Shown here: positions 1 through 7,033 of the stretch, in pieces
Numbering within the stretch: position 1 is the stretch's first letter
Layout of the letters: each line of letters starts with the position of its first letter
DNA from: Nitrosopumilus sp. Nsub
GTDB lineage: Archaea > Thermoproteota > Nitrososphaeria > Nitrososphaerales > Nitrosopumilaceae
Direction: 5' to 3'
Assembly: GCF_001541925.1 (NCBI RefSeq)
Contig: NZ_LQMW01000022.1
Location: 1-33,242, forward strand
DNA length: 33,242 nucleotides
The notes under the pieces: model-generated
What the model was told of the DNA's origin: nothing
What the model saw: the letters and a program-made list of their open reading frames with translations, nothing else
Database searches by the model: none
Translations under genes and position numbers: made by a program

Positions 1-15
1 ATATGAGTGGGCAAT

Positions 16-449
16 CTAAATAAATAGATGGATGAGAAACATAGCGAGCGTGAAGGTGAGGGAGAGAAAGCTGACTAGTGCAGGTGCACCACTAAATCCA
101 ATCACCTCCTGTACAATAGCCTCTCCAGATACAGCTGCACTAGCAAACTGGAGTACTTGTGGAGGTAGGACATCAGCAGCGATATTTGGGTTATTGATCC
201 AGCGAGCAATCCGGTCACTTTCTTCACCACAGAACATTTCATCGTCGGGCGTGCGTGCCTCGAGAGTGATTTGAAGGTTCTCGGATGAAGTGAAGGACAC
301 GTCTAGCTCACAACGATTGGTCGTTTCATCTGAAATAAAACCAGACTCTACGAGTAGTGCGATGAAATCATCAATGGTTCGGAGTCTGGGGTTGAGTTTC
401 ACATACTCTCCGAGACCTCTGAAGTCAATAGCTACGAAAATTATTCCAC
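16..449 (-). CDS. Terminal coding exon of a eukaryote-type spliced gene fragment; ends in small residues (SGA) plus a hydrophobic tail, resembling a GPI-anchor/TM signal
   Basis: Part of ORF 16..459(-). It is preceded on the minus strand by a polypyrimidine tract plus AG (TATAATTTTTTTTGTGTCCAG, AG at 451-450). The reading frame continues in phase from exon 615..840. G+C is clearly higher than in the rest of the window. Confidence 0.55.
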
Positions 450-614
450 CTGGACACAAAAAAAATTATAGCGATAATCAATCAATCAGAACCAATTGTT
501 TTCTACTGCTGTACACTGAAGCAAAAAGGACAAACATAGTTACCATGGCAATGCTACAGTAAAGGTATGGGAGATGGTAGCAATGCAAGCAAATATAAAA
601 GTTTATGTACTCAC
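450..614 (-). other. Putative spliceosomal intron (165 nt, GT-AG)
   Basis: Donor TGTG|GTGAGTAC, with GT at 614-613. Acceptor ...TTTTTTTTGTGTCCAG| ends at 450. Splicing joins G(615)+GT(449-448) into a Gly codon and keeps the frame of both flanking ORFs. Confidence 0.55.
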
Positions 615-840
615 CACAAAGAGCACAGCATCCTTCCTCCGGTCTCACAAGGTGACGACAGTTGGAAATGTTATAAACACATCGTCTAGCTCGACTCACT
701 CTCTGACAGACACCCTCAGGGGTCTCTTGTGGGTCTTCATCATCTACATCACACTCTCCGTAGTAGTCCACACGAGCATTGCCAGATTGACTGCGGAGGA
801 CACAGATGTTCTCATATGTAACACCATCAGTTCCACACAC
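615..840 (-). CDS. Internal exon of a eukaryote-type gene: C-terminal half of a Kazal/follistatin-like motif followed by a Cys-rich stretch
   Basis: Translation is VCGTDGVTYENICVLRSQSGNARVDYYGEC...CQRVSRARRCVYNISNCRHLVRPEEGCCALCG. It is preceded by the acceptor CTCACTCCTACAG| ending at 841 and followed by the GTGAGT donor. The rest of ORF 478..840 is intron read-through. Confidence 0.6.
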
Positions 841-885
841 CTGTAGGAGTGAGTTTAGATCATACTGATTTTAATTTGGATTCAC

Positions 886-1428: not shown

Positions 1429-1810
1429 GATTGTCTGTGTCTTTTTTGCCGTACTAGTAAAAATGAATGATTTTTGTTAAAAGGTAAAGTGTTGTACAAT
1501 TGACAATTAATTCAAAAAAACATTCCTCATGGAATCATTCCTTGATCAATGCTCTTTTTGACAAACAATTACGGTTAATCGTAATTTAGTAACTTTCTAG
1601 TTATTGGGGATTTGTATATCAGGATAAACCCCAAAACCAAAAACGGAATTCCAATCCAACCATGGTGTCACAAATTTTTGATAGTTTTTTATTCAAATAG
1701 TTTTTACGGGTATTTTTAAAAAATGATTTTCTTAAGAATAACACTATATCGATTACAGAAAAATAATATTAATAAAAATACGGAAAAATGTTAGAATCAG
1801 TAAATTTACA

Positions 1811-2128
1811 TTATTGTTTTTTGTTAGTTTTACGTTTCTCCACATATCTATTAATTAAAATTGCTACAGGTATCCAAAATAACAAATTGAAAATTACAAG
1901 AAAAATAGGATAAATTACATTATCAGAATCAATATTTTGGAAATCATAATTTTTATTGAAATCTATAATCATAAAATCAAAAAAAATATACATCACAGAT
2001 ACTATGGGATTAAGGTAAAACATCATTCCTGGAATTGGGTATGTGTTCCCTGTTAGCATAGGAAAAAAACTAATTAAAATTCCATAAAGAGGAAGTCCAA
2101 TTAATAGTGAAAAGATTGGTTTAATCAT
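1811..2128 (-). CDS. Small polytopic membrane protein (105 aa)
   Basis: ATG start, about 3 hydrophobic helices and a basic C-terminus. It lies 10 nt downstream of the secreted-protein gene 2139..3011, so is probably co-transcribed. Confidence 0.6.
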   Translation of the reverse strand: MIKPIFSLLIGLPLYGILISFFPMLTGNTYPIPGMMFYLNPIVSVMYIFFDFMIIDFNKNYDFQNIDSDNVIYPIFLVIFNLLFWIPVAILINRYVEKRKTNKKQ

Positions 2129-2138
2129 AAAAAAATAC

Positions 2139-3011
2139 CTAAGGTACTGAGACCGTAGATAGTGATGGGTTTGTATCCGATGTATTCATCATATGATTCC
2201 ATGTATTGCTAACATAGATGGTAGCGCCTGGAGAATAGGTTTTTGTTGCTGTTAAATGACAGCCAACAATGCTTCCAGCTAGACAATCGAAGTCATTTGA
2301 TGAACTATAAGTATCATCAAATATTATTTGATTATTGTTTTTAATATCAAAGGATTCAATATCCATAATTCTTTGATACCAGCTTATTCTTAAAGCATCA
2401 TAGAAAGCATCAAGATATGGATGGTCTTCATCAAAGAAATACAAAGTATATGTTCGTACACATGTTGAAGAATTATCACTATACACTACCCCAAATAAAT
2501 CGTTGTCGCCATTAAAAGAATATCCCCCATAGGAGCCTCCATTAATGTCAATTTGGACTTGTTTGTAATTTGGATGTGTTGTACTAGGACACGCAGCTTC
2601 GGCCATCTGGATACCAAATGCTTCTAGAAAATCAATGTTTAATGGTTTAACTGATTTATTTTCCTTCGCAATTTTTAATTTTTCATCTTTTACAGTTTCA
2701 CGAAAAATATAGTCAATTGCGCCTTGAATTTCATCCTCAGTTAATTCAGTCGTATTTGTTTCAATACGAATTTCTTCTATTGATTCTCTAAGTAATTTGT
2801 CATATTTGGCCTTTATTTGTGTGGATTTTTCATCATATGATTTTTTATCTTTCTTTGTATCTTTCAACCAAGTTTTTACATCATTTTTGAGATCTTGTTT
2901 TGTTTCTTTATCATAGCTCTTTGCATCTGCCATTTGCATTCCTGAAAATGGCAGAATCATTGCAACAATGAGTCCAGCAAACAATATCGTTTTGATGTTT
3001 TTTGTCGTCAT
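2139..3011 (-). CDS. Secreted protein: signal peptide, Lys-rich helical region and a conserved C-terminal DEDHP/WNH domain of unknown function
   Basis: 290-aa ORF with ATG start and signal-like N-terminus. The C-terminal ~150 aa are paralogous to ORF 3913..4389 (shared YTLxFxDEDHP, DIESF, Y[VI]SN[TV]WNH[AM]M). Confidence 0.75.
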   Translation of the reverse strand: MTTKNIKTILFAGLIVAMILPFSGMQMADAKSYDKETKQDLKNDVKTWLKDTKKDKKSYDEKSTQIKAKYDKLLRESIEEIRIETNTTELTEDEIQGAIDYIFRETVKDEKLKIAKENKSVKPLNIDFLEAFGIQMAEAACPSTTHPNYKQVQIDINGGSYGGYSFNGDNDLFGVVYSDNSSTCVRTYTLYFFDEDHPYLDAFYDALRISWYQRIMDIESFDIKNNNQIIFDDTYSSSNDFDCLAGSIVGCHLTATKTYSPGATIYVSNTWNHMMNTSDTNPSLSTVSVP

Positions 3012-3077
3012 TAAAATTTACATAAATTATGAGATTAATAAAAAATAGTTCAATCCAAATTGAACAAATCTTTATAT

Positions 3078-3538
3078 TCACATATTCACATGTCTCGCAT
3101 GAACTGCAAAGAAAGAACTCAATAGAATCGATATCGGTAATCCATTTTGTTCCACTGCAACATGTATTTTTGTGCCTGTTATCTTCTTGAATCCATCATA
3201 TCCTATTACGTTGCCCCTTTTTTGGCAGAAATTGATGATGAATCGATGGATACTTTCTGCAGTTGCAGTTTGCCGGACTGATGAGCTGATTTTATTATTC
3301 CAGATAGAATATTTTTCCAAATTTCTTTTTGCTGCCAGTTTTGCAGTCTGAGATGCACAGTGGATTTGCTACCATATCTTTTTGGCATTTCACTCCACCT
3401 GCATCCAGATATCAAAACATAGATGATTCCATTTATTGTTGTGCGGTCATCACATCTTGGTCTCCCAGTTCTATCTGGTTTTGGAAGGTGCTTGTGTATT
3501 CCTTCCCATTGTGAGTCTGTTATTTCTTGATATTTCAT
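3078..3538 (-). mobile_element. Truncated IS5-family (IS427/IS1031-like) transposase remnant with a -1 frameshift site; the DDE catalytic portion is missing
   Basis: ORF 3206..3538 has the typical N-terminal region (ITDSQWEGIHKHLP...GRPRCDDRTTINGIIYVLISGCRWSEMP...STVHLRLQNWQQKEIW). ORF 3078..3320 continues in the -1 frame (GYDGFKKITGTKIHVAVEQNGLPISILLS). The frames overlap at A AAA AAG (T6 at 3218-3223 on the plus strand). Homology stops near 3117, with no DDE motifs after it. Confidence 0.7.
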
Positions 3539-3640
3539 GGAATGGTATCAATTGAGATAATTCTTAGATCAAGATGATCGTAATTATTTTACAAAATGAT
3601 CGGTTTTAGGATGACTTGGTTAATTCAAAGTCATTCTAAA

Positions 3641-3925
3641 TTAGGATTTTAAATGATTGAATATCATGCTAGCTAACACAATTCCAAAAAGTAGTATGCT
3701 TGCAACATATGCAAATTTGTATTTTTTGTAAATTAGATATCCTAAAAAGATTCCAAATACTCCAATTACAAAATGTATTGTAATTGCTACTTCACCACTA
3801 AATTTTACACCATAAAACCAAGTTTCAGCATTAATTATAATTGGAATGATCCAAAGACCATAAAACAACCAATGTAAAACAGATATTGTTTTTCGAATAA
3901 AAGAAAAAAGAACTAGGTAGTCCAT
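3641..3925 (-). CDS. Small polytopic membrane protein (94 aa)
   Basis: ATG start and 3 hydrophobic helices. It overlaps the stop of the upstream paralog gene by 13 nt, the same gene order as 2139..3011 / 1811..2128. Confidence 0.6.
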   Translation of the reverse strand: MDYLVLFSFIRKTISVLHWLFYGLWIIPIIINAETWFYGVKFSGEVAITIHFVIGVFGIFLGYLIYKKYKFAYVASILLFGIVLASMIFNHLKS

Positions 3926-4329
3926 GTAGTCATAGACATTCCTGAATTTTCATTTGTTGTATCCATAGCATGATTCCATACATTACTGATATAGACTGGG
4001 GAGCCACTAGAATATGATCTTACCTTGTTTCCATGTTGACCATAGAATTCTGCAAAGGTCTTGTCATTATCCCAGATACCATTGAAGTTTATGCCTGCAC
4101 TTGTGACATAAAATGATTCAATATCGGTAGTTCTACCATATTGTACAGATCTCCAATTATCCCAAAAATCATCCCACCATTCATCTGGGTGGTCTTCATC
4201 ATCGAATGTTAGAGTATAGGTTACTTTAGTGGACGTATATGAAGTTGACAAGGAAGAAAAGTCGTTACCTCCATCAATATCATAATCATTGCTTGAACTA
4301 TCAGTTCCAGAACCACCCGTTCTATCCAC
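3913..4329 (-). CDS. 5'-truncated paralog of the DEDHP/WNH secreted-domain protein (possible pseudogene; no signal peptide)
   Basis: The track ORF starts at GTG 4329, but the frame is open and still homologous up to 4389 (AYASGNPYPITSWKQVTVD versus AEAACPSTTHPNYKQVQID). There a TAA (4392-4390) ends it. No N-terminal signal or helical region is present. Confidence 0.5.
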   Translation of the reverse strand: MDRTGGSGTDSSSNDYDIDGGNDFSSLSTSYTSTKVTYTLTFDDEDHPDEWWDDFWDNWRSVQYGRTTDIESFYVTSAGINFNGIWDNDKTFAEFYGQHGNKVRSYSSGSPVYISNVWNHAMDTTNENSGMSMTTWTT

Positions 4330-4574
4330 TGTTACTTGTTTCCAAGATGTGATAGGATATGGATTTCCAGATGCATATGCTGCCTGGTGTTATGTAACAA
4401 TAGCAGAAGATTATGGTACTACAACTGGTTTATCATGCAATAACAAATCAGGTCAAGGCGGATTAGTTACTACTGATGCTCTATATGGAACATCAAATAG
4501 CAACACATCTGAATTCCAAGGTGTTACAGGAATAATCCTCTAACCTTTTTTACTTTTTATGGGGACTACAAAAA

Positions 4575-4967
4575 ATGACTAATATGAAAAAAGCTGTGTT
4601 AATTTCAACACCATTAATCGCTGTCACAATAGTTTTAGGATCCGTTTGGATCTATGCAATAAATGAAACTAATGAATACGAGAGTAATTTAGATGACTTG
4701 ATTTTAGTAAAAAATTGTGTACCAAGCTTATTTGATGATTCACCAAAACCAGACATTCCAATACAAAATGATACCCACAAATTCAATCATGTTATTTGTG
4801 AATGGCAAAAGATAGAAAAATATCCAAACACCAACATTGATTGTATTCCTGGACAAAACAAATGGGTAACGGGAGAAGAGATTAGAAACACTACCCACAT
4901 CTACAACAAACACAAATGTTTATGGGAAGAAGAATTTAGTTGGACTGCAGAATATGGCAAACCCTAA
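4575..4967 (+). CDS. Membrane-anchored/secreted Cys-containing hypothetical protein
   Basis: 130-aa ORF with ATG start and an N-terminal TM/signal (AVLISTPLIAVTIVLGSVWIYA). It contains an internal duplicated motif (TH-x-[FY]N-x3-C-x-W). Confidence 0.65.
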   Translation: MTNMKKAVLISTPLIAVTIVLGSVWIYAINETNEYESNLDDLILVKNCVPSLFDDSPKPDIPIQNDTHKFNHVICEWQKIEKYPNTNIDCIPGQNKWVTGEEIRNTTHIYNKHKCLWEEEFSWTAEYGKP

Positions 4968-5048
4968 AAACTTTGGCAACCTCCAAATTATCATAATGGA
5001 CTAGTACTGTACTCTGATAATTTTTATTGCAACCCTACGGATGGCGGA

Positions 5049-5252
5049 ATGCCTGATCATTGCTATTCTCTTGAAAAGATAGTGTTTGGTGATAGCAACA
5101 AAAAGAGAGAAACAAGATGGAGATTATATCCCGGCGGATCGGGATGGACACTTCCAGAAGATTCTACACTTACATCTATCTACAAAGAAGCTGAATTTGG
5201 AATTCCACCACGTGATTTGCAAGCAATGCTTGATGATAATCTCTTAAACTGA
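5049..5252 (+). CDS. Small hypothetical ORF, possibly the downstream part of 4575..4967 interrupted by an in-frame TAA
   Basis: It is in the same frame as 4575..4967. The 27 codons between TAA(4965-4967) and ATG 5049 are stop-free. Confidence 0.4.
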   Translation: MPDHCYSLEKIVFGDSNKKRETRWRLYPGGSGWTLPEDSTLTSIYKEAEFGIPPRDLQAMLDDNLLN

Positions 5253-5254
5253 AA

Positions 5255-5533
5255 TTATTCTACAGATACACCATTCCAAAATGCCACCATTCCTTTAATT
5301 TTGGAGGCAGCATCATTTGGGGTTTCATAGTACCATGCACAGTCTTTGTTTGTCTTACCATTGATGGTAACTGAATAATAATTTGCCATTCCTTTCCAAC
5401 CACAAAAAGTAGTCAAGTCAGTTTTTGTGAAATATTCTTTTTTTATAGAATCAAACGGAAAGTAATGATTTCCTTCAACCACTACAGTGTCATCACTGTC
5501 TGCAATTACTATTCCATTCCATGTTGCTTGCAT
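5255..5533 (-). CDS. DUF427 domain protein
   Basis: MQATWNGIVIADSDDTVVVEGNHYFP...TFCGWKGMANYYSV...AWYYETP...VAFW matches the DUF427 pattern. ATG at 5533 is preferred over the TTG at 5566 used by the track. Confidence 0.75.
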   Translation of the reverse strand: MQATWNGIVIADSDDTVVVEGNHYFPFDSIKKEYFTKTDLTTFCGWKGMANYYSVTINGKTNKDCAWYYETPNDAASKIKGMVAFWNGVSVE

Positions 5534-5590
5534 GGAAGCATTACAAAATATACCATATTTAATCAAATCTAAAATTATAAGATTATTTGA

Positions 5591-7033
5591 TTAAATTTTT
5601 GCTTTGACTTGATCTCGTTTTGTAAAGTCTGGTTTTATTCCAAGAGAATCATAGTTTCCAGATGAACATGTAAAGCACATAGAGTCCTTTGGCATGCCAA
5701 CTGCATCAGCTAAATTCTCAGCATCATTATACCCCAAAAAGTCAACACCAATACTTTTTCTGACCATTTCAGTTATTTCTTCAGTAGTCATTTCTTTACC
5801 ATCAGTGTAAGTTGCAAGTTCCTCTTGAGATGGGAAATCAATTCCAGCATAACAAGGATAGTTAATTTGTGGGTATGTAATTAACATACTAATTTTTTTA
5901 GCTCCTGCTCTTCTGAGTGCTTTGATTATGGCTTTAGAACTTGTTCCCCTAACCAAACTATCATCAATTACTACAACATGTCTATCTCGAATAATTTCAC
6001 TAATTGGAATAATCCATCTGTTAATTTCTACTCTGTCACTTTGGTGAGGTTCAATGAAACTTCTCAAAGGACCTTTCTTGCTGTATCTGTCTTTGAGTAG
6101 GCCTTCATCAAAGGATACGCCTAGTTCTTGTGCGTAACCCAAGGCTGCAGGTCTTGCAGAATCAGGGACAGGAATTACCAAATCAGCATCTTTAATTGGG
6201 AATTTTTTTGCCATAAACTTTCCAATATTTTTTCTAGAGATGTAGATGTTACGTCCTTCCATCATACTAGATGGATGTGCAAAATAAGTAAATTCAAATG
6301 AACAATGTGCACGGGATTTATCATCAGAGAACTTTTCAGTCTCTAAACCATTTTTACTTAATTTAATTAATTCACCAGGAGTTACATCTCGTTGTAACGT
6401 TGCAGCAACTGCAGTTACAGCTGCAGATTCAGAAGTTACAATGTATGTATCATCAGACTCTTTATGTCCCAAAACCATTGGACGAAAACCTTTAGGATCT
6501 CTTGCAGCATAAACAGAATTATCATCAGAAATAAAAGTAAAACAATACGAACCAACCATTTCATTTTTTAAAATTGATAGTGCTTTTCCCATTTCACCGT
6601 TTTCAGAAATTAATGAAACCAATCTTTCTGCAGCGACCAAAGTATCACTTGCATTTTGAGGAGTAAAAGAACATCCTCCAACTAAATTGGATAGTTCTTG
6701 TGCATTTGCAATTGTTCCGTTATGTGCAACACAAAGATCTTTTACTTTCAATGGTTGTGCATTTGCCAAAGTACTTGTACCCATTGTAGAGTATCTTACA
6801 TGTCCAATTACACAAGGTGATGCATACTCTTGTGCAATTTTTTTAAATTCTGATGAGGAGTGCGAAACTAATCCAACTTTTTTGAATGGTGGTTTGTTAG
6901 GTACTGCAAACCCCCAAGCTTCTTGTCCTCTATGTTGTAAAGCACGTAATGCATCAAATACCATAGGTACAACATTCTTACCAGAAAGACTGTAAATTCC
7001 AACCACACCACAATTTTCTTTTACTTTAGGCAC
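5591..7033 (-). CDS. purF: Amidophosphoribosyltransferase
   Basis: 480 aa with the N-terminal nucleophile motif NCGVVGI, a Gln-amidotransferase class II domain and a PRTase motif (VVVIDDSLVRGTS). GTG start overlapping the purL stop. Confidence 0.95.
   Translation of the reverse strand: MPKVKENCGVVGIYSLSGKNVVPMVFDALRALQHRGQEAWGFAVPNKPPFKKVGLVSHSSSEFKKIAQEYASPCVIGHVRYSTMGTSTLANAQPLKVKDLCVAHNGTIANAQELSNLVGGCSFTPQNASDTLVAAERLVSLISENGEMGKALSILKNEMVGSYCFTFISDDNSVYAARDPKGFRPMVLGHKESDDTYIVTSESAAVTAVAATLQRDVTPGELIKLSKNGLETEKFSDDKSRAHCSFEFTYFAHPSSMMEGRNIYISRKNIGKFMAKKFPIKDADLVIPVPDSARPAALGYAQELGVSFDEGLLKDRYSKKGPLRSFIEPHQSDRVEINRWIIPISEIIRDRHVVVIDDSLVRGTSSKAIIKALRRAGAKKISMLITYPQINYPCYAGIDFPSQEELATYTDGKEMTTEEITEMVRKSIGVDFLGYNDAENLADAVGMPKDSMCFTCSSGNYDSLGIKPDFTKRDQVKAKI

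Follow-up and report, generated by a model that had tools for sequence, protein, structure and literature searches.

A mobile archaeal two-gene module encoding a predicted exported Lsa23-like protein and a small membrane protein in Nitrosopumilus

The immunity proteins of pore-forming colicins and bacteriocins are small polytopic inner-membrane proteins. Lsa23 of Leptospira (LIC11360) is known solely from assays of the recombinant protein, which binds factor H, C4BP and plasminogen (PMC5174078). Its domain family is already named in NCBIfam (NF047489, 'surface adhesion protein Lsa23') and is without a mechanism, a Pfam entry or a structure. Two further systems resemble the present one in gene organization: the polymorphic toxin and contact-dependent inhibition (CDI)-Rhs loci (Zhang et al. 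2012, PMC3482391), and a hypervariable gene module of Thermococcales encoding immunoglobulin (Ig)-domain proteins, for which a role in conflict or in self/non-self recognition was proposed (PMC8416519). In this study, we analyzed a stretch of 33,242 nt from Nitrosopumilus sp. Nsub (NZ_LQMW01000022.1, the whole stretch being referred to as the window), in which two cassettes lie on the minus strand within positions 1633-4392. One consists of a gene for a protein with a domain marked by the motifs DEDHP and WNH (copy 1) and a small membrane protein gene (partner A), the other of a shortened domain gene (copy 2) and a different small membrane protein gene (partner B). They belong to a conserved and mobile archaeal two-gene module, which combines a predicted exported protein carrying an Lsa23-like domain with a small polytopic membrane protein, and which is characterized by partners matched to domain subfamilies, frequent orphans and association with insertion sequences (IS). 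The module, both partner families and the behaviour of the cassettes appear to be undescribed in the literature, where only the general work on polymorphic toxins and the unrelated Thermococcales module were found.

One genome per GTDB species was scanned for the domain, and the domain open reading frame (ORF) and the next ORF on the same strand were tabulated for each locus. A small membrane ORF is located at -19 to +66 nt after the domain gene in 34 of the 37 archaeal modules with an intact 3' end. These partner ORFs are 70-138 aa in size with one to four predicted transmembrane (TM) segments, the one exception in size being a fused version of 232 aa (L020). The linkage of domain and partner spans Nitrosopumilaceae, Archaeoglobales, Methanoperedens and unclassified archaea, and at least two unrelated families of partners exist, each tied to certain domain subfamilies. 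An earlier note on this DNA, made from the sequence alone, had proposed an effector/immunity organization of the two genes, and this idea is not refuted by the strongly conserved synteny in other genomes. No such ORF follows the domain gene in three modules (L032, L034 and L035), and no membrane partner was found at the two Planctomycete loci. In L035, a GC-rich insert with long overlapping ORFs (4470-5800) is present right after the intact subfamily-B gene, at the expected partner site, in a Nitrosopumilus chromosome that is otherwise AT-rich.

The two downstream ORFs of the window have the lengths, the spacing and, by hydropathy scan, the three TM segments that were initially assigned to them (Table 1). 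Their reported dissimilarity also stands: BLASTP of the products gave no match, and distant homology between partners A and B was rejected by an hhalign family-family probability of 0.5%. They are not divergent copies of one partner, as had been supposed, and represent two unrelated families, each of them conserved. Family A has 21 distinct members, each directly 3' of a domain gene, and a total of 22 database matches, which are of Nitrosopumilus type wherever named. The motifs of this family, GLPxYG, NP and NLxFWxPxA, are all placed within predicted helices, and the loops are variable. Homologues of partner B were found 3' of subfamily-B genes in Nitrosopumilus (L031 with 60% identity, L039 and L033), Archaeoglobales (L025), Methanoperedens (L029) and unclassified archaea (L030 and L043), and a profile search yielded 25 matches, including Ferroglobus placidus and Methanoperedenaceae GB37. 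The conserved motif of partner B, NAETWF[FY]GxKFSG or more broadly N[AP]E[ST][WY]FFGxK[FL][SG]G, is located in a loop predicted to face outside. A third partner type of 88 aa occurs behind subfamily-A genes in L014 and L015. Partners A and B matched no Pfam, NCBIfam or PADLOC family, and neither conserved polar or catalytic residues nor any likeness to peptidases or translocon components were seen in the partners. In the fused version from a GC-rich Nitrosopumilaceae genome (L020 4478-5176), partner A is tandem-duplicated and joined into a single ORF with two GLP...FW.P.A units. A programmed frameshift or readthrough joining the domain gene and its partner was also considered and dismissed: the partners have start codons of their own, and the gaps occur in every frame.

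Judged by its sequence, the DEDHP/WNH domain is distantly related to the Lsa23 lipoproteins of Leptospira. The two families have homologous domains of ~120-150 aa with F.DEDHP, D..YD..R, D.E and NTWNH in common, and both are extracytoplasmic, the archaeal proteins by prediction. However, copies 1 and 2 score only 39 and 49 bits against NF047489 (E values in Table 1), far below its equivalog cut-off of 270 bits, and even bacterial relatives of ~200 aa attain no more than 68-150 bits, at E values from 1e-19 to 1e-44. Some of these bacterial proteins carry a lipoprotein signal, with a lipobox ending in ...LAACS before the domain in P0126 and P0131; the archaeal proteins instead have a Sec signal and a helical region of ~100 aa, and no lipobox. 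Most subfamilies have a conserved A.A just ahead of the domain (GIQxAxAxC, LPSAYAAC). Apart from the IS5 parts, scans of both copies with Pfam, NCBIfam and PADLOC gave nothing but the sub-threshold Lsa23 match, and the initial failure to recognise the domain is consistent with the lack of a matching Pfam entry. A profile search of 1.84 billion representatives connected archaeal and bacterial members in 281 families at E <= 1e-3. The domain extends beyond Nitrosopumilales, a point that the earlier note had wished to see checked: it was found in Nitrosopumilaceae, Archaeoglobales, Methanoperedens, Theionarchaea, Planctomycetes and lipoproteins of the Leptospira type. In one bacterial protein, P0195 (L064 4001-5137), the Lsa23-like domain is fused to a membrane domain of the YhhN family (PF07947, E 4e-37), the only such membrane-enzyme fusion seen. 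A link to lipid enzymes, considered from this fusion together with neighbouring EEP and PLD genes, was dropped when these neighbours proved to be exonuclease III and a NucT-like nuclease, so that it rests on the single YhhN fusion.

Across 109 diverse members, the positions N37, D61, E62, D63, P65, D68, Y71, D72, R75, D84, E86, H119, N136, W138, N139, H140 and N148 are invariant or nearly so. From sequence conservation, the Asp/Glu/His cluster, which had been taken for a metal or catalytic site, would fit a catalytic or ligand-binding site. Two AlphaFold2 models concur in predicting a domain that is largely beta and contains a single long helix (pLDDT 84 and 88.5, pTM 0.80 and 0.83). Foldseek searches with these models against the PDB gave best E values of 1.3 and 0.79 with TM scores of at most 0.26, the best match in BFVD (E 0.08, rmsd 9.5 A) allowed no fold assignment, and profile searches (A2, A6) against PDB sequences reached best E values of 0.18 and 0.78. 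Neither profiles nor folds matched a housekeeping enzyme family, and the effector/immunity idea is not refuted from this side either.

Copy 1 is a member of the Cys-containing subfamily A (...SNTWNHMMDTSDTN...VSVP). It is 100% identical to the cluster representative P0001, a protein named hypothetical from a Nitrosopumilus metagenome-assembled genome. In a search of 5.8 billion proteins, ~45 full-length homologues of ~290 aa each were detected; those that are named are nearly all of Nitrosopumilus type, with more than one per genome in several cases.

Copy 2 belongs to a separate subfamily B, with the signature GQHG...SNVWNHAMD. Its frame has no internal stop, no signal peptide and no ATG, and the earliest possible start is a GTG at 4329. 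By tblastn it is 73-77% identical to the full-length Nitrosopumilus proteins of L031 (304 aa) and L035 (296 aa), the alignment beginning at their residue ~142-149 and reaching their C-terminus, and 53-54% identical to the C-terminal parts of the Methanoperedens (L029) and Archaeoglobales (L025) proteins. Since these relatives align to copy 2 only by their C-terminal ~150 residues, it is a 5'-truncated member of this subfamily. A tblastn search with L031 and L035 found no counterpart of their N-terminal ~145 residues upstream of 4389, and many stops lie beyond the TAA at the breakpoint, in frame upstream of copy 2. The loss of the signal peptide and helical N-terminus at this in-frame TAA had been recognised earlier, as had the paralogy of the two domain genes: copies 1 and 2 share 35% identity over 158 aa (BLASTP, E 7e-20), and the blocks KQV..D..GGS, YTL.F.DEDHP, DIESF and Y[VI]SN[TV]WNH[AM]M are present. 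The simple duplication proposed in the earlier note does not hold, for each copy is far closer to genes of other genomes than to the other copy. By sequence comparison, the two copies are ancient domain subfamilies, each with its own unrelated partner family, and not products of a recent duplication. On the plus strand, an open frame at 4392..4543 ends 31 nt before the ATG of a 130-aa gene. This frame may represent the 3' remainder of a gene that lost its 5' part in the event that truncated copy 2, and no homologue of it was found among the fetched loci.

At least six orphans, each with a 5'-truncated domain remnant and an intact partner, were identified: copy 2 of the window, L013 (5000-5170), L022, L044, L043 (4038-4187) and L048/L049. 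The orphan of L013 sits straight after a complete pair, and the one of L048/L049, in a closed Methanoperedenaceae genome, combines a remnant of 50 residues with an intact partner B of 114 aa and neighbours a tRNA synthetase gene. Several genomes carry three to five copies of the module, often near transposases. In scans of metagenomes for partner-only loci the alignments proved too variable, and a narrower scan gave one truncated locus.

The copy-1 cassette was found nearly unchanged in other surroundings. Contig JAANXA010000027.1 of Nitrosopumilus sp. SuakinDeep_MAG45_8 is 99.3% identical to window 3618..1633, a stretch that takes in the IS remnant, both genes of the cassette (copy 1 and partner A) and a further 178 nt. 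The purF-purL flank of this contig reaches no more than 82-85% identity and has the opposite orientation relative to the cassette; the intervening genes are different ones and do not include copy 2. The exact partner A protein is encoded on 13 contigs, of which 12 are metagenome contigs of 1.2-1.7 kb with only copy 1 and partner A. Seven aligned metagenome contigs are 99.7-100% identical to the window, two of them, from the sponge metagenome run SRR1802789, at 100%, and the contig ends cluster at window ~3005-3021 and 1633/1634. In natural populations, a two-gene unit of 1.39 kb thus occurs with differing flanks. A search for terminal repeats or recombination sites around the cassette detected none. 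In both strains, the interval between purF/DUF427 and the cassettes encodes a small protein that contains Cys and has a TM or signal segment at its N-terminus (window 4575..4967, plus strand, and L007 3253-3486); it has 130 aa in the window and 77 aa in L007, differs in orientation, and marks the edge of a rearranging island by purF.

Between the two cassettes lies a truncated IS, noticed already at the outset, which Pfam and NCBIfam matches assign to the IS5 transposase family. The remaining ~110 profile positions of its DDE part are absent, and the element is therefore a remnant and no active IS. The window has no second copy of it. L007 carries this remnant at 98% identity, and relatives with ~70% nucleotide identity are found beside or inside domain genes in L026, L027, L037 and L038. 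Such placement of this IS family is thus seen in another Nitrosopumilus genome; the IS of L027 splits the signal peptide from the rest of the domain gene. The side-by-side arrangement of the cassettes could be an assembly artefact in which the IS joined non-adjacent loci, with the individual cassettes still real; we consider this rather unlikely. Contig JAANXA010000027.1 breaks off within the IS, at window 3618, so that the link of copy 2/partner B to the IS, which rests on one assembly, could stem from a misjoin at the repeat. On that contig the cassette is oriented oppositely relative to purF and copy 2 is absent between them; the break of metagenome contigs at ~3005-3021 and the foreign composition of window 1-850 point the same way. 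However, rearrangement at IS elements is expected biology too, and both assemblies place the cassette only a few kb from purF.

Table 1. Features of the two cassettes and the intervening element in the window.
Feature	Coordinates	Strand	Evidence
Copy 1, full-length secreted (predicted) protein, 290 aa	2139..3011	-	ORF and translation
Copy 1 signal peptide, aa 1-30, ending ...MQMADA before K	2922..3011	-	Single N-terminal hydrophobic segment, aa 9-25
Copy 1 Lys/Glu-rich region, predicted helical, aa 31-133	2613..2921	-	
Copy 1 DEDHP/WNH (Lsa23-like) domain, aa 134-290	2142..2612	-	NF047489 match, E 5e-10
Partner A, 105-aa 3-TM membrane protein, basic C-terminal tail	1811..2128	-	10-nt gap after copy 1; TM segments 5-21, 34-50, 75-91 (hydropathy scan)
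3' flank of copy-1 cassette, T-rich tracts, reaching the recurrent breakpoint 1633/1634	1633..1810	-	Identity to L007/L055 stops at 1633; metagenome contigs L059-L061 end at 1633/1634
Truncated IS5-family element	3078..3618	-	Homology to other copies over 3126..3612
IS orfA, DUF4096	3206..3538	-	DUF4096 E 1e-24; IS5 transposase profile positions 3-105 of 258, E 1e-28
First ~35 residues of IS DDE part	3078..3320	-	Profile positions 111-146 only
Partner B, 94-aa 3-TM membrane protein	3641..3925	-	13-nt overlap with copy 2; TM segments 14-30, 46-62, 73-89 (hydropathy scan)
Copy 2, 5'-truncated orphan of subfamily-B domain gene, 158 codons	3916..4389	-	BLASTP, tblastn; NF047489 match, E 4e-13
In-frame TAA, 5' breakpoint of copy 2	4390..4392	-	Homology of full-length relatives starts immediately after

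No tRNA that might serve as an integration site was found in the window, and a scan for promoters and terminators of bacterial type gave the same counts as in shuffles. The first 850 nt of the window (ORFs 16..459 and 478..840, minus strand) have 45-50% GC against ~30% elsewhere and encode a Kazal-type serine protease inhibitor domain (PF00050, 23 bits, barely over the cut-off). This region either encodes a eukaryote-like protein belonging to an archaeon associated with sponges or results from a chimeric join. The metagenome contig L056, which is near-identical to the window, diverges at 1455.

The signal peptide of the domain proteins, MTTKxIKTILFAxLIAAMILPFSGM, is common to unrelated Nitrosopumilus proteins of ~200-390 aa without Pfam domains. 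The weaker matches of copy 1 (P0046-P0060) have only this signal peptide of ~30 aa in common with it, and one gene of L001 (9984-10832) has additionally ~25 following residues in common with the domain proteins of the same genome. A small TM-containing ORF follows all three sister proteins whose context was read (L001 4876-5784, L050 4001-4948 and L051 3989-4948), which suggests a wider repertoire of secreted-protein/partner cassettes with other C-termini. In two unrelated cassettes, the secreted-protein gene is immediately preceded by a small winged-helix gene (L051 3582-3923, assigned to PF14947 HTH_45; L005 1324-1653, by resemblance), which may be a dedicated regulator.

We tentatively interpret the module as a mobile secreted effector with a cognate membrane protector, an interpretation to which we give somewhat less than an even chance. 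The first gene would encode a Sec-exported protein of ~300 aa in which a cleavable signal peptide is followed by a rapidly evolving helical region and a beta-rich domain of ~155 aa, whose near-invariant cluster of acidic, His, Asn and Trp residues (DEDHP ... D.E ... H ... NxWNH) would most likely form a metal-dependent catalytic or ligand-binding site acting extracellularly. The second gene, presumably co-transcribed and often translationally coupled, would encode a small polytopic membrane protein matched to the domain subfamily. The secreted protein might then act as an antagonistic effector on the envelope or membrane of neighbouring archaea, and the small membrane protein would shield the producer at its own membrane. 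Copy 1 and partner A would be an intact, recently transferred cassette, and copy 2 and partner B an orphan in which the 5' half of the effector gene was lost by rearrangement with the protector gene left intact. Immunity genes typically show replacement by non-homologous genes at one and the same position (see Zhang et al. 2012, PMC3482391). The effector/protector interpretation draws on the non-homologous partners at one fixed position, the orphans that keep the partner, the transfer of the cassette between strains, its multiplicity in genomes and the sister cassettes, and it is further favoured by the conserved polar cluster and by the partner B motif in a loop predicted outside. What the analysis shows is homology, architecture, synteny, orphans and mobility; secretion, enzymatic activity, toxicity and protection are what we infer.

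In several respects the module resembles the polymorphic toxin loci (Zhang et al. 2012, PMC3482391): the gene for a secreted protein directly precedes a small cognate gene, different effector variants are paired with unrelated downstream genes, orphan effector ends truncated on the 5' side still have their downstream gene intact, and there is IS association and exchange between strains. Unlike those loci, the module has no long conserved delivery or repeat region, the ~30-aa signal peptide being all that is common to other C-termini; it has neither a secretion system of its own nor a known toxin or immunity domain; its orphan lies upstream of the intact gene and not downstream, and the domain occurs also in non-conflict contexts. 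The putative protectors of ~90-130 aa with three to four TM helices beside a secreted-protein gene recall the immunity proteins of colicins and bacteriocins in organization, but no sequence similarity to them exists, and the upstream domain, which the models predict to be beta-rich and globular with an enzyme-like polar cluster, differs from a helical pore-forming domain. The Thermococcales module (PMC8416519) is likewise an archaeal variable module in which a gene for a surface or secreted protein precedes variable downstream genes, but it encodes large Ig-domain proteins instead of a ~300-aa Lsa23-like protein, and no homology was detected.

Several observations weigh against an effector with its protector. 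The bacterial homologues do not have the membrane partner found in archaea and stand in housekeeping surroundings in all three contexts examined (after ahcY-metK, translationally coupled to the exonuclease III gene xth, and the single YhhN fusion), which implies that the domain is not intrinsically self-toxic. In the giant archaeal proteins (for example those of 1,934 aa, from Theionarchaea, and 2,663 aa) the domain is near the N-terminus and followed by FG-GAP, MG2, CARDB, Laminin_G_3, DUF2341 or TSP3 modules, a context that suggests surface binding rather than a C-terminal toxin tip. Domain genes that are 3'-truncated and without a partner exist as well (L023, L037 and L038); decay thus runs both ways, and the orphans may simply reflect frequent IS-driven decay. 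Within family A the divergence of partner and domain shows no correlation (Spearman 0.02), a value that speaks neither for nor against pairwise co-evolution, as the partners, with a median identity of 24%, are close to saturation, whereas the divergences of the domain and the N-terminal region track each other (Spearman 0.78). Pfam, NCBIfam and PADLOC scans of domain and partners revealed no similarity to known toxin, immunity or defence families, no delivery system beyond the Sec signal and no secretion-system genes were present in the loci read, and a search for carriage on plasmids, phages or viral contigs found none. The toxin/immunity assignment, circumstantially supported by orphans, mobility and sister cassettes and countered by the bacterial homologues and the adhesion-type giants, is one we still only infer.

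Another possibility, which we regard as less probable yet worth retaining, is that the secreted protein is a benign binding or enzymatic module (e.g. a lectin or hydrolase) acting on envelope or environmental substrates, and that the membrane protein is the dock tethering it to the cell surface. Bacterial-type lipoprotein anchoring is lacking in the archaea here, so that tethering or positioning would fall to the membrane protein, and some bacterial homologues have their own lipid anchor and no partner. A dock would explain why bacterial lipoproteins and giant surface proteins do without a partner, and the placement of the domain amid adhesion-type modules in the archaeal giants conforms to it, as does the description of Lsa23, the sole studied relative, as a surface adhesin for host glycoproteins (PMC5174078). 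The correspondence of partner family and domain subfamily and the conserved outside loop predicted for partner B would suit a dock as well. However, intact partners remain beside destroyed domain genes at no fewer than six loci, unrelated families occupy the same position, the conserved residues of partner A are intramembrane while its loops vary, and the mobility and multiplicity of the cassettes are more typical of conflict genes. It is also conceivable, though improbable, that the partner is an export or maturation helper, which aids secretion, folding or processing, for instance by removing the helical N-terminus at the A-x-A before the domain. The tight translational coupling of the two genes, the conserved A.A in most subfamilies and the variable, helical, pro-region-like N-terminal region agree with such a role, but the partners have neither conserved polar or catalytic residues nor similarity to peptidases or translocon components, two unrelated families would be needed for one job, and orphan partners would be clientless.

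The ammonia-oxidising archaea belong to the most abundant marine microbes, and to our knowledge little is known about how they compete with or recognise each other. The module is a compact two-gene unit of ~1.4 kb that is conserved across archaeal phyla, mobile between strains and directly testable. The cassettes may possibly, though this is doubtful, constitute an undescribed family of secreted effector and membrane-immunity pairs with a new protein fold, exchanged horizontally among ammonia-oxidising Nitrosopumilaceae and several euryarchaeal lineages. If the effector/immunity interpretation is true, archaeal antagonism in nitrifiers would be open to experiment and the role of Lsa23-type proteins would be re-framed; the module could rank among the first candidate systems of inter-archaeal antagonism in these abundant nitrifiers, and the shared signal peptide would mark a wider cassette repertoire with other C-terminal domains. 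If the membrane protein is a dock instead, the module would represent a new archaeal way of anchoring secreted proteins. On either reading, the domain and both partner families merit family definitions.

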